From IMG/VR virus record IMGVR_UViG_2681813271_000011: a stretch of DNA of 6,338 nucleotides; one strand, given 5' to 3'. The notes beneath the pieces are model-generated. The model saw only the letters and a program-made list of their open reading frames with translations, had not been told where the DNA came from and made no database searches. This DNA comes from a virus. Taxonomy: Duplodnaviria; Heunggongvirae; Uroviricota; Caudoviricetes. Of the stretch, positions 2,050-5,377 are shown in pieces (position 1 is the stretch's first letter; every line of letters begins with the position of its first letter). The position numbers were made by a program, and so were the translations under genes.

Positions 2050-3557
2050 TGTTCTGGAATAAGAAAAATAAAAATTCAGAAACTAAACCCAAGAAGATTA
2101 AACAGGAACGTTCCTTAAAACAAAGTACCTTAAAACGAGATCTACAGGCAGTACGCAACACATCAGTAATGAACTTCGGATTCAATTCAAACTCAGGCAG
2201 CAATATCAACTTCCTTCTGATGAAAGCACTACCTACCTTCAGGGCTTTCTCACGTGATGCAGTACTTAAGAATCCTATTGGTCGTAAGTACATGAACCTA
2301 TCGGTAGATGGCGTTGTAGGCTCTGATGGCCTGTACGTTAAACCTTCAGTAGAGATTGACGGTACTGAAGAAGAAATCAACGGAATCAATCTAACCTTGG
2401 AAAAGCTCTTTGACCGTTGGGCATATGATGCTGATCGTTTTAGTGTTGATGGCTCATTAAGTTTTGACCTGTTTCAGCAGAACGCAGAGAAGGTAAGGGT
2501 CCAGGATGGTGAATGCTTTATTCGTATACACAATATTAATAATACCATCAAGTTAGAAATTCTCGATACGGTTCGTTTGCTTCAGTTAAATAATCAACGT
2601 TTGAGTAATGGTAATTATATTAGTAATGGTATTGAATTTGATAAATGGCATAAGCCAGTTAATTACTATTTCTGTAAATTCGATCCTGTTACCTATACTT
2701 ATATCACTGGCGATTATGAAGTAATTCCCGCTGCGGAAATCTGTCACTACTTTATTGCTGATCAACAAGGCCAGGAACGCGGATTGCCGGACATGGTTGC
2801 AACTTCCAAATTAATGGAAGATCTCAAGAACTTCACTGAGGCTGCGTTAACTGCGAAACGTGTATCTGCATCGTCAATGGCTTTTATTACCAATAATAAC
2901 GACACTACCAGTACTGATCTGTTAGGGGCTGATGAACGAGAAGAAGTTACACCAGTATATACAGAGTATTTTGAAGCTGGCTTTATTGGTGAGTTAGCCG
3001 AAGGGCAGGATATTAAAACTGTTACACCTACTAATGGTGTTGATGGGATTGATCAATTTACCAATGAATTGATGAATCAGATCTCGATGGGTCTGAACAT
3101 AACAAAGCAAGCCTTATTATCTGATACATCCAATGCTTCATTTAGTGCAAGCCGACTTACTGAGAAATTACAACAAACTACATTCCGTACCCGTACTAAT
3201 GTACTAATCAGTAAAGTACTTAAACCAATTTATATCGCCTGGTTAAAGAACGAAATGCTAAATAACAATAAGTTAAATCTAAGTTTCTCGAGCTTTGATG
3301 ATCTTATTTGTGCTCGGTATATTTCTCAAAAGCCAATTAGTTTAGATCCTGTAAAGGATATACAGGCTGAACTACTCCAGTTAGAAGCAGGTATTAAATC
3401 TAAAACACAGGTTATTGCTGAGTTAGGCGGTGATCCAGTGAAGGTATTAGCAGAGGTACAGGCAGAAAAGGATAAAGAAAATAAAAACAAGGAAGTAATC
3501 CAGGATGGAAATGAAAAACCAGAAGAGGGAACTAACGAAACCCCTACAGGCGATTAA
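2049..3557 (+). CDS. Portal protein (lambda gpB-like portal family suspected)
   Basis: A 502-aa ORF immediately downstream of the terminase, with an AGGGAG SD-like site about 10 nt upstream. The size is typical for a portal. The segment [27 protein letters not shown] resembles the conserved NYSSAR-type region I recall in lambda-family portals. The N-terminal tail is Lys-rich and the C-terminal tail is acidic and Lys-rich. The start is coupled to the upstream gene by TAATG. Confidence 0.8.
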
Positions 3558-4682
3558 TACAGAATCGCGTACCATCGAAGTAGCGTTTTGTTCAGAAACC
3601 CCTGTAGAACGTGAAATCAACGGTCAAATCTATAACGAAATTCTTCTATGTGGTTCCAGTAACGCAGACCTAACCCGCCTTAATAACAATGGGGCAGTAC
3701 TCTTTAACCATAACCGTGATGATCTTATTGGTGCTGTAGTTGATGCACGAGTGGATGCTGATCGCGTTGGTAGAGCTACATTACGAATTAGCAGTACCGC
3801 CAACGATGAATGGGAAATGATTCAGGAAGGCGTACTAACCCATATTAGCATTGGCTATAACATTAATGATTATCAAATTGATGGTAATAATATCTATGTT
3901 ACCAACTACGAAATTTATGAAATCTCATTAGTAACAGTACCTGCCGATCCTACCGTTGGGGTAGGTCGTTCAATGGACTCACAACTTGCATTGAAATCAC
4001 TAAATAAAGAAGGTGAAACAATTCAAGAGGGTCAAATGGATATGGATAATCCAGAAAACGAAAAGGAATCAATTGTTGATAGTACTGAAGAAGTAAATGA
4101 AACAATTGAAGAGGCATTAGTAGAGCCATCGGTCGAATATGCAGAAGAAATCAAACAAGAATTAAGTGATGAAGAACTTTTAGAAATTATCTCTACTCGA
4201 CCTGATTTGCTCAATAAAGTACATGGTGAAGAACCAGAAAGTATAAATAGTACAGAAGATACTGAACGTGTTCGTGAATTAGAAGCACTCGGTAAAGTAC
4301 TTAATATTGATGTATCTGAAGCAATTGAAACAGGAATTTCAATTTCAGATTTCAAACGTCAATTGAATGACATTAAACAAAATCCTCTTCATGATAAGGA
4401 AATCAAAGAAATGGATAATAAAAATCTATTAAAAGATATGGTACGTGCCATTAAAACTGGCGATAAATCTGCTCTTGAAGCATATGAACGTGGTATTAAT
4501 GGTTTTGTACGTGCGGCTGTACCAAGTACTAATACTACTACCGCTGCTGGCGTTGTAGCTGATGACCTACAAGATCAATACATTCCAGAACTACTAAAAA
4601 TTTCTGCACTTGGTGAACTAAACACCACTGTTTATTCTGGCCTTGCAGGTCGCGGTACTCTAAGTATTCCAAAAGCGGCTGG
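3505..4682 (+). CDS. Prohead protease (HK97 / S78-type) fused in frame to an acidic scaffold-like segment and the N-terminal part of the major capsid protein; 3' end runs into the N gap
   Basis: One uninterrupted frame from the ATG at 3505 (or 3511) to the gap. The N-terminal roughly 155 aa carry HK97-type prohead protease motifs: [13 protein letters not shown] (His), THISIGY (Ser) and [11 protein letters not shown]. Next comes a Glu/Asp-rich predicted helical segment, then a sequence with major-capsid N-domain character ([46 protein letters not shown]). The last codons of the track ORF after the gap (ISGI, 4714-4728) are probably not real, because the capsid continues in another frame after the gap. 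Confidence 0.75.
4036..4410 (+). other. Acidic low-complexity scaffold-like or delta-domain-like segment inside the protease-capsid frame, with a candidate internal in-frame start
   Basis: The segment begins [59 protein letters not shown].... The ATG at 4036 is in frame and preceded by GAGGG about 4-5 nt upstream. A second in-frame ATG at 4411 is preceded by AAGGAAA with an 8-nt spacer. The arrangement resembles the nested in-frame protease and scaffold (C and Nu3) genes of lambda. Confidence 0.4.
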
Positions 4683-4711
4683 NNNNNNNNNNNNNNNNNN
4701 NNNNNNNNNNN
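4683..4711. other. Run of 29 N (assembly gap) inside the major capsid coding region
   Basis: Uninterrupted n characters. Capsid-like coding sequence is in frame 1 before the gap and frame 2 after it. Confidence 0.99.
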
Positions 4712-5377
4712 GTATCTCCGGTATTTAAATTCTATGGTGAAGCAGAAGCACAGGATGATTCTATTGCAAGCTTTACTAAAGTAACCCTAAGCCCTAAAGC
4801 TTTTGGTGGTGCTATTCCACTATCCAAACAAGCAATTCTAACGGCTCCAAATATTGAATCATTTGTACAAAGTGAACTACTACGGTATGCCGCTCAGGGT
4901 CTTGAGCAAAATGTAATGGATAAAGTAGTTGCCGCTGCTCCGGTGTTCAATGTTGAAACTGCTGGTTCTATTACTCTTGAAGATGTTCAGGGTGCAGTAG
5001 CGAAGCTGGCACAGGCTAACGTTGATATGCGTGGCGTTAAAGCTGTTATGAACGCTAAAACCCTAAGTACCCTACGTCAGATTGCAGTACTTGATAACAC
5101 TGCTGCTAAAGCAATGGTTGAAGGTTATCGCAGTACTGAAATGTGGCTTGCTGATGAAGTACGTGTAGTGATTTCTGAATTCGTAGCAGATGGTACTATT
5201 CTAATGGGCGATTTCTCCAATGTAATTCTCGCTAATTGGGAAGGGCAGGAAGTAGATTATGACGATACATCCTATCGTTCAAGTAACACTATCGTATATC
5301 GCGTATGGGATTACTCAGATATCGCACTTGCACACTCTGAAGCTTTCGTAAATATCGTTATTGGTAAAGCAGAATAA
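4712..5377 (+). CDS. Major capsid protein, HK97-fold, C-terminal portion (5' end lies in or before the N gap)
   Basis: Frame 2 is open from the first base after the gap (VSPVFKFYGEAEAQDDSIASFTKVTLSPKAFGGAIPLSKQAILTAPNIESFVQSELLRYAAQGLEQNVMDKVV...) to the TAA at 5375-5377. The track ORF 4916-5377 is only its 3' part, beginning at an internal Met. The FTKVTLSPK...IPLSKQ segment parallels the ITFSKQTANVKTIAHW region of HK97 gp5 as I recall it. The position after the protease and scaffold fits a capsid gene. Confidence 0.8.
   Translation, partial: VSPVFKFYGEAEAQDDSIASFTKVTLSPKAFGGAIPLSKQAILTAPNIESFVQSELLRYAAQGLEQNVMDKVVAAAPVFNVETAGSITLEDVQGAVAKLAQANVDMRGVKAVMNAKTLSTLRQIAVLDNTAAKAMVEGYRSTEMWLADEVRVVISEFVADGTILMGDFSNVILANWEGQEVDYDDTSYRSSNTIVYRVWDYSDIALAHSEAFVNIVIGKAE

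Follow-up and report, generated by a model that had tools for sequence, protein, structure and literature searches.

This study concerns a phage head gene at positions 3505-5377 (plus strand) of a 6,338-nucleotide stretch of DNA from the IMG/VR record IMGVR_UViG_2681813271_000011 (Caudoviricetes), the whole of which is referred to here as the window. A prohead protease domain, an acidic scaffold-like linker and a major capsid domain are encoded by this gene in a single frame of 614 codons (67.4 kDa), a run of 29 N being counted as one base. The open reading frame (ORF) begins inside that of the portal protein, overlapping its 3' end by 53 nucleotides (nt) (3505-3557), and ends with the TAA codon at 5375-5377, which is directly followed by a second TAA. 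A Shine-Dalgarno (SD) sequence for the full-length product, AAGGAAG, is found at 3489-3495 (plus strand), upstream of ATG 3505 and of an alternative ATG at 3511. Each of the two ATG codons has an SD-like motif, and gene callers differ in their choice (614 amino acids (aa) in the database protein P0001 and 612 aa in P0002). In the related locus L001, the start equivalent to ATG 3505 forms a duplex of -6.1 kcal/mol with the anti-SD sequence. If a speculation is permitted, the overlap with the portal ORF would fit with the protease-bearing form being expressed at a low level and in a coupled manner.

The frame opened by ATG 3505 stays free of stop codons until it reaches the N run (4683-4711). 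The earlier note, prepared from the letters alone, had described this stop-free stretch, with HK97-type protease motifs, an acidic linker and the start of a capsid domain in it, and all of these elements were confirmed. The same note spoke of one continuous frame, which does not strictly hold for the letters of the window, since with the 29 N taken literally the capsid C-terminal part from 4712 onwards lies in the +1 frame relative to that of ATG 3505, and the latter stops at 4726-4728. Continuity was established by three other IMG/VR contigs, L018, L019 and L020. Their identity with the window is 100.000%, across 2678 nt leading up to the gap and as many as 1627 nt beyond it, and exactly one base, a T, takes the place of the 29 N (blastn places window position 4682 on 2678 and position 4712 on 2680). 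These contigs read ...AAG|VSP... as part of a single 614-codon ORF, and the translation of the window is the same as theirs on both sides of the gap. The run at 4683-4711 hence stands for one T, the third base of the Gly393 codon GGT, as was determined by blastn and base read-out and found to be the same in L001.

The closest database protein, P0001 (614 aa, Escherichia coli, annotated as “phage major capsid protein”), likewise reads ...SIPKAAG|VSPVF..., with a single Gly joining the two fragments of the window, and in the DNA of its contig window positions 4682 and 4712 map to adjacent-but-one positions. Moreover, each of nine independent family loci sharing 44-99% identity contains one uninterrupted ORF of 598-654 aa. 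The idea that the N runs are true to length, which would imply a frameshift, was ruled out, as the 29 N correspond to 1 nt, and a second run, of 330 N at 1648-1977, to approximately 279 nt in relatives (L001). The run of 29 N does not represent 29 real bases but an artefact (a gap or mask), and its length is meaningless because the contigs with identical flanks read one T; positions 3505-5377 are one 614-codon phage head gene. With a single T in place of the N run, the join across 4683-4711 is expected to read GCTGGTGTATCT / GCGGCTGGTGTATCTCCG. The practical lesson is that such a run should not be taken as a frameshift. The identical sequence is already public, labelled as either a capsid protein or a prohead protease.

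The first domain of the product, encoded at 3535-3969 (plus strand; approximately aa 11-155), is of the HK97 (S78) prohead serine protease type. In the profile hidden Markov model search which had been proposed as a check, Peptidase_S78 (PF04586, cut-off 21 bits) scored 39.7 bits on the part preceding the gap and 38.8 bits on P0001, covering aa 61-153. The motifs LFNHN and THISIGY are both present in the 3505 frame. His69 (CAT, 3709-3711) and Ser115 (AGC, 3847-3849) are invariant across 30 homologues, and in an hhalign alignment to gp4 of HK97 they fall on H65 and S114, respectively, which we take to be the catalytic residues of that enzyme. The AlphaFold (AF2) model contains a beta-rich domain at aa 23-143, with predicted local distance difference test (pLDDT) values mostly of 70-86 (block means 58-86). 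The protease of lambda, gpC, belongs to a different family (S49/ClpP-like), and no Pfam family of that type was found for the fusion ORF at E 0.01 to 0.1 or better. The N-terminal domain is an HK97-type S78 prohead protease in which the catalytic residues are conserved and activity is predicted from the sequence.

The protease domain is followed by an acidic linker (3970-4410, plus strand; aa 156-302), in which 41 Asp and Glu residues stand against 14 Lys and Arg residues (isoelectric point 4.18). In the AF2 model, aa 147-220 are disordered and aa 222-292 are helical. A helix-loop-helix-like block from R255 to R285 is strongly conserved and includes residues that are invariant in the same 30 homologues.

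The remainder of the protein is an HK97-fold major capsid domain (4543-5374, plus strand; approximately aa 347-614). Phage_capsid (PF05065, cut-off 24.2 bits) scored 60.2 bits on the part following the gap and 64.9 bits on P0001, with a match spanning aa 350-608 (nt 4552-5356). The capsid part of the AF2 model has pLDDT values mostly of 74-92, falling to 47-62 at aa 571-590. When this part was compared with known structures by Foldseek, capsid proteins were retrieved at E 1e-13 to 1e-10, the top match being 8gta of roseophage vB_DshS-R4C (R4C; E=1.6e-13, template-modelling score on the target 0.66), and the HK97 gp5 structures 1ohg, 2ft1 and 3e8k were matched at E of about 1e-11 to 1e-12. The match of the capsid domain to 8gta_A was also obtained with phmmer, so that R4C provides both the best structural and the best PDB sequence match, at 21% identity.

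The R4C comparison bears on maturation as well. The fusion gene of this phage, vBDshSR4C_006, encodes 629 aa, while the chain seen in the virion has 268 residues, exactly residues 362-629, and the boundary ...NTGTATA|GGVLVAQDY aligns with ...STNTTT|AAGVVADD of the window protein. Since the virion chain of R4C is the C-terminal 268 residues of a 629-residue fusion product, the mature N-terminus of the window capsid protein is predicted, by analogy with a relative at 21% identity, to lie near Ala347 (nt 4543); the stretch from Ala347 to Glu614 is likewise 268 aa long (28.7 kDa).

Two further SD-ATG combinations are located within the gene, in the same frame and downstream of the protease domain. 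Internal start site 1 (4025-4038, plus strand) consists of the SD sequence AAGAGGG at 4025-4031 and ATG 4036-4038 (Met178), with a second ATG at 4042-4044 (Met180); its predicted product is a scaffold-capsid protein of 437 aa (47.7 kDa). Internal start site 2 (4396-4413, plus strand) consists of AAGGA at 4396-4400 and ATG 4411-4413 (Met303), and its predicted product of 312 aa (33.4 kDa) would be a capsid protein with a 44-aa N-terminal extension. Met303 is invariant in the 30 homologues, in a stretch which is otherwise variable. ATG 4036 and ATG 4411 had both been named in the earlier note as internal starts to be tested, and they turned out to be conserved SD-ATG sites across the family.

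In each of the nine loci, pairing with the anti-SD sequence at -5 kcal/mol or stronger was reached by the annotated start, by a Met codon soon after the protease domain and by the equivalent of Met303; among the other in-frame ATG codons of these loci only three did so, each in one locus and none conserved. In a survey of 75 unique ORFs, the Met of site 2 was present in 74, and all 74 had an SD of this strength, in 31 distinct nucleotide contexts; the background, measured on 723 other in-frame Met codons, was 7.9%. Site 1 was counted in the ORFs in which the C-terminal motif of the protease could be located (64), and an SD with ATG occurred 9-47 codons past this motif in 64/64; control windows in the capsid domain gave 8% (background 7.5-8%).

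The two sites are also marked at the level of codons. The SD core of site 1 is kept in various forms (GAGGG, AAGGA, AGGGA, AAGGT, GAGGA) while the encoded residues vary (QEGQ, QKDQF, QKEEL, QEREL, EERL, QKDMI). At site 2, Lys is encoded by AAG without exception (74/74), the next codon being GAA or GAT, whereas AAG makes up 26% and AAA 74% of the Lys codons gene-wide. Between-clade identity of synonymous codons is in excess at both sites, and the strongest excess in the whole gene is found just upstream of Met178. Local RNA structure is weak at both internal sites, as it is at the true start. Taken as sequence evidence, this supports the view that 4036 and 4411 are real ribosome-binding sites, and the internal starts probably also yield shorter capsid proteins, giving nested products of 67, 48 and 33 kDa.

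A few database entries resembled separately encoded parts of the protein and were examined as such. P0267 (309 aa), which could be read as a stand-alone capsid gene beginning at the Met303 position, begins with a GTG that lacks an SD and is joined out of frame to a protease-scaffold fragment lying upstream; it is a frameshift or gene-calling artefact and lends no support. P0133, P0140, P0166 and P0231, considered as short protease-scaffold proteins, look truncated or frameshifted.

In our judgement, the best explanation of the locus, and one held with fairly good confidence, is that of a protease-scaffold-capsid gene with nested initiation at three sites, co-assembly of the products and cleavage near Ala347. 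Ribosomes would start at ATG 3505, ATG 4036 and ATG 4411, each provided with its own SD, and would thereby produce a 3'-coterminal nested set comprising a protease-scaffold-capsid protein of 67.4 kDa, a scaffold-capsid protein of 47.7 kDa and the N-extended capsid protein of 33.4 kDa. In effect, three ancestral genes (for protease, scaffold and capsid) would have kept their start signals with no stops left between them. The three forms would co-assemble on the portal through the capsid domain that they share, so that protease and scaffold would be covalently tethered inside the procapsid, facing its interior, at less than one per capsid subunit. After assembly, the crowded protease domains would remove everything N-terminal to about Ala347, leaving a mature capsid protein of about 268 aa (28.7 kDa) and an empty shell for DNA packaging. 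The earlier note had left open whether the locus encodes a protease-scaffold-capsid polyprotein or nested in-frame genes, and this core reading is supported, the ORF being continuous in identical and related contigs alike. Its suggestion that the protease is delivered in a fixed ratio with its substrate seems overstated; the ratio to capsid would not be 1:1 if the internal starts are used. We lean, with only slight preference, towards the more general view that the gene is a stop-less, three-tier nested operon in one frame, in which the strengths of the start sites set the protease:scaffold:capsid stoichiometry and the covalent link replaces non-covalent recruitment.

Several points weigh against nested initiation. 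Neither here nor, in the papers that could be searched, for any relative was protein-level or ribosome-profiling evidence of the internal products found. RNA accessibility did not discriminate between real and chance sites. Synonymous-site conservation is raised at a few other linker positions too, and was counted as modest support only. The linker is purine-rich, being full of Glu and Lys codons, which makes SD-like strings likelier, although the measured background is still about 8%. The K-[E/D] pair and the Met of site 2 are conserved as residues, so that some of the signal could stem from constraint on the protein, such as a cleavage site. Finally, the 29 N of the source genome itself are formally unknown sequence, and the join in that genome is read from the identical contigs.

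The most serious competitor is a pure polyprotein, in which the 614-aa chain is the only product and each capsid subunit comes with one protease and one scaffold (1:1:1) and releases itself by cleavage; the internal SD-ATG motifs would then be residues for cleavage or recognition (...DKEIKxM...) or SD-like pause sites at domain boundaries. The uninterrupted ORF in all relatives fits this explanation, as do the purine-rich linker and the protein-level conservation at site 2 noted above, and such genes are treated as single fusion proteins by annotators and in the literature. A constraint on the protein alone, however, does not account well for an SD core that is kept at site 1 while the amino acids differ, nor for a site 2 Lys codon that is AAG in 74/74 ORFs though AAA is the usual choice, nor for motifs placed 4-10 nt before ATG in 64/64 and 74/74 genes against a background of about 8%. 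By our own estimate, a T=7 shell would in addition be crowded by some 415 cargo units (aa 1-346) of 38.7 kDa each, amounting to approximately 16 MDa. We therefore regard the pure polyprotein as unlikely, though it deserves to be taken seriously, and prefer nested initiation from three sites.

That the gene is broken in the source genome, with the 29 N representing genuine additional bases (a 28-nt insertion, say) that throw the capsid part out of frame and leave the prophage defective, would agree with the +1 position of the capsid frame when the window is read literally. The three contigs with identical flanks have one T at this place, the 330-N run is also off in length compared with relatives, and the frame following the gap is free of stops or damage through 5377, all of which makes a broken gene very improbable. 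Even less credible, to the point of being negligible, is a protease-scaffold gene that ends, and an independent capsid gene that begins, inside the gap: nothing but the existence of the gap speaks for it, while the capsid domain begins well before it (aa 350, nt 4552, for the first residue of the Pfam match, against aa 393 for the gap) and relatives read straight through its position.

The fusion of protease and capsid is in itself ordinary, widespread and fairly common. Among the candidates scored, 924 homologues were found, and of the 120 listed all but a few have both Pfam domains and a length of approximately 600-650 aa. An exhaustive search of representatives of 50%-identity clusters gave 5224 matches at E <=1e-3, and of the best 150, 135 have a length between 536 and 684 aa; in IMG/VR, 497 stretches matched. 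The window protein aligns end to end with PHROG 617 (“major head protein”, profile length 626; E=2.7e-84, aa 2-607 on profile positions 5-620) and also matches PHROG 4523 (“major head and protease protein”; E=2.5e-38). The protein is an S78 protease and an HK97-fold capsid protein in one chain and a member of the protease-capsid fusion family, all three assignments having been tested. In the passages of PMC9671004 that deal with such proteins, the SEA-PHAGES programme has a standard name for the protease-capsid fusion and describes it as “common in small-genome siphoviruses”. The earlier note, in calling these fusions uncommon, thus underestimated them, as the number of homologues, the two PHROG fusion families and this passage indicate. 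Four proteins from the search of representatives (P0163, P0216, P0218 and P0264) are 800-893 aa long, with the protease domain starting at residue ~230-290, which implies an extra N-terminal domain ahead of protease-scaffold-capsid.

No close DNA relatives were detected by megablast of the region against isolated phages and plasmids, and among complete E. coli genomes only partial matches of 74-83%, located in the terminase gene, were obtained; close relatives are found only in draft genomes, metagenomes and IMG/VR. Distant full-length fused homologues are present in isolated phages, namely VP882, phiHAP-1, Xanthomonas phages FoX1-5 and Murka, Burkholderia phage Mica, Achromobacter phage Mano, Escherichia phage DCP80 and R4C. 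In the FoX/Murka group the protein is annotated as “major capsid protein and protease”; in VP882 (gp07, 632 aa) and phiHAP-1 (ORF5) it is called “major head protein”.

The genes of VP882, phiHAP-1, FoX/Murka, Mica and Mano are arranged as in the window, and their fusion proteins align over 96-99% of the query, but they share only 22-26% identity with it and have different linkers. The flanks inspected in VP882, phiHAP-1, Murka, Mica and Mano all follow the order of gpA-type terminase, head-tail joining protein of approximately 176 aa, lambda-family portal and fusion. The pairing of a lambda-type terminase and portal with an HK97-type protease, to which the earlier note had drawn attention, is therefore real, although it is not mosaic in the sense of a local recombination, because the same module order recurs in VP882, phiHAP-1, Murka/FoX, Mica and Mano; lambda-type genes for packaging and portal have long been combined with an HK97-type protease in a conserved module. 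The tails differ: VP882, phiHAP-1, FoX/Murka, Mica and Mano have P2-like baseplate genes, while L001, the relative of the window, has a lambda-like Phage_tail_3 protein and a gpJ-like tip.

With respect to internal starts, VP882 and phiHAP-1 (Hapunavirus) have an SD and ATG after the protease domain, as does the window gene, and a strong SD with ATG (M189) is found at the same place in R4C. For site 2, no clear equivalent is seen in VP882, phiHAP-1, Murka, Mica or Mano. Both sites (M180 and M321) are present in DCP80, the protein of which (XNX25177, 666 aa) is the closest in the collection of isolated phages that was searched, with 30% identity over 96% of the query. A start at site 1, given its recurrence in VP882, phiHAP-1, DCP80 and R4C, could be general to protease-capsid fusions. 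The DCP80 protein is unannotated, and its gene order matches that of the window, with the flanking genes annotated only as hypothetical. The module (L012, PQ671644.1, positions 1734-7789, every product a “hypothetical protein”) lies near the left end of a 141-kb record assigned to Straboviridae/Tevenvirinae, which is an odd home for it, and the record may be a chimeric assembly or a misclassification.

HK97 itself offers the simplest comparison. Its gp4 is a protease of the same family with aligned catalytic His and Ser, its gp5 has the same capsid fold, and the scaffold forms an extension at the N-terminus of the capsid protein that can be removed, so that the predicted product starting at M178 would be the formal equivalent of gp5. 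The difference lies in a stop codon and 2 nt between the two genes (the last base of gene 4 is 4025 and the first of gene 5 is 4028, in HK97 coordinates), and the protease of HK97 is recruited non-covalently. Formally, and by analogy, the fusion gene resembles a version of HK97 genes 4 and 5 that has lost the stop but kept the downstream starts. In lambda C/Nu3 and in herpesvirus UL26/UL26.5, an internal in-frame start gives rise to a 3'-coterminal shorter product, and the protease-bearing form is the minority. Nested protease/scaffold genes, I and Z, are likewise known in Mu-like phages (PMC4378225). In all three cases the capsid protein is the product of a separate gene, whereas the nesting proposed for the window would run through the capsid protein and comprise three tiers.

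The fusions of the SEA-PHAGES phages and of Pseudomonas phage PAJU2 have the same architecture and the same proposed self-processing, PAJU2 being cited as having a capsid polyprotein with proposed autocatalytic cleavage; the passages that concern them (PMC9671004; PMC8306868) make no mention of nested internal starts. In the R4C structure paper, the protease or scaffold part is not discussed. Within the searchable literature, which is incomplete and thus weak evidence, the only case of internal starts found in a search for them in protease-capsid fusions was that of the Mu-like I/Z genes, and no description of a conserved three-tier nested initiation was encountered.

The rest of the window is in keeping with a head gene module. 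The 3' two-thirds of a gpA-type large terminase gene occupy positions 23-1456 (GpA_ATPase and GpA_nuclease Pfam matches), and the lambda-family portal gene (Phage_portal_2, 201 bits), directly upstream of the fusion gene, spans 2049-3557 (plus strand). Between them lies an ORF (1468-2049) split by the 330 N. It corresponds to a 176-aa protein, the size of the VP882 gp05 “head-tail joining” protein, and no PHROG match was obtained for its first 60 aa. Downstream of the fusion gene, the ORF at 5391-5714 has a weak, sub-threshold match to Phage_attach (21.7 bits, cut-off 26) and takes the position of the lambda FII-like gene of relatives. An inverted repeat at 5460-5500 within this coding ORF, with a 17-bp stem (ACGGGAAGTACTTTTAC-AGGAATA-GTAGAAGTACTTCCCGT) followed by TTCTATT, is unusually long for a coding region. 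A scan for promoters and terminators within the fusion gene gave nothing over the shuffled expectation.

Two more ORFs follow that at 5391-5714. One of them, starting at 6126 and running past the window end at 6338, has a counterpart in L001 (12594-15245) of 883 aa with a Peptidase_S74 domain (fibre/endosialidase chaperone). In L001 this protein is flanked by the head-completion genes on one side and the major tail gene (Phage_tail_3) on the other, an odd place for a fibre-like protein. At 38.7%, the G+C content of the window is low for a prophage of enterobacteria. There are 66 copies of the tetramer GTAC in the window, compared with 20.8 expected from base composition and 46.7 by a Markov estimate; most take the form AGTAC (40) or GTACT (30).

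The fusion itself is a matter of routine annotation, and a gene of this kind is better annotated as “major capsid and protease fusion” than simply as “major capsid protein”. The window gene is an uncharacterised member of a known fusion family, and the element that is possibly new is the conserved three-tier nested initiation. If true, it would extend the principle of C/Nu3, Mu I/Z and UL26/UL26.5 into the capsid gene itself. The internal starts, if used, would explain how a fused gene avoids supplying one protease and one scaffold with every capsid subunit, and would make this enterobacterial prophage a compact and genetically tractable system for the study of procapsid stoichiometry, with relevance to the engineering of self-processing HK97-fold nanocontainers.

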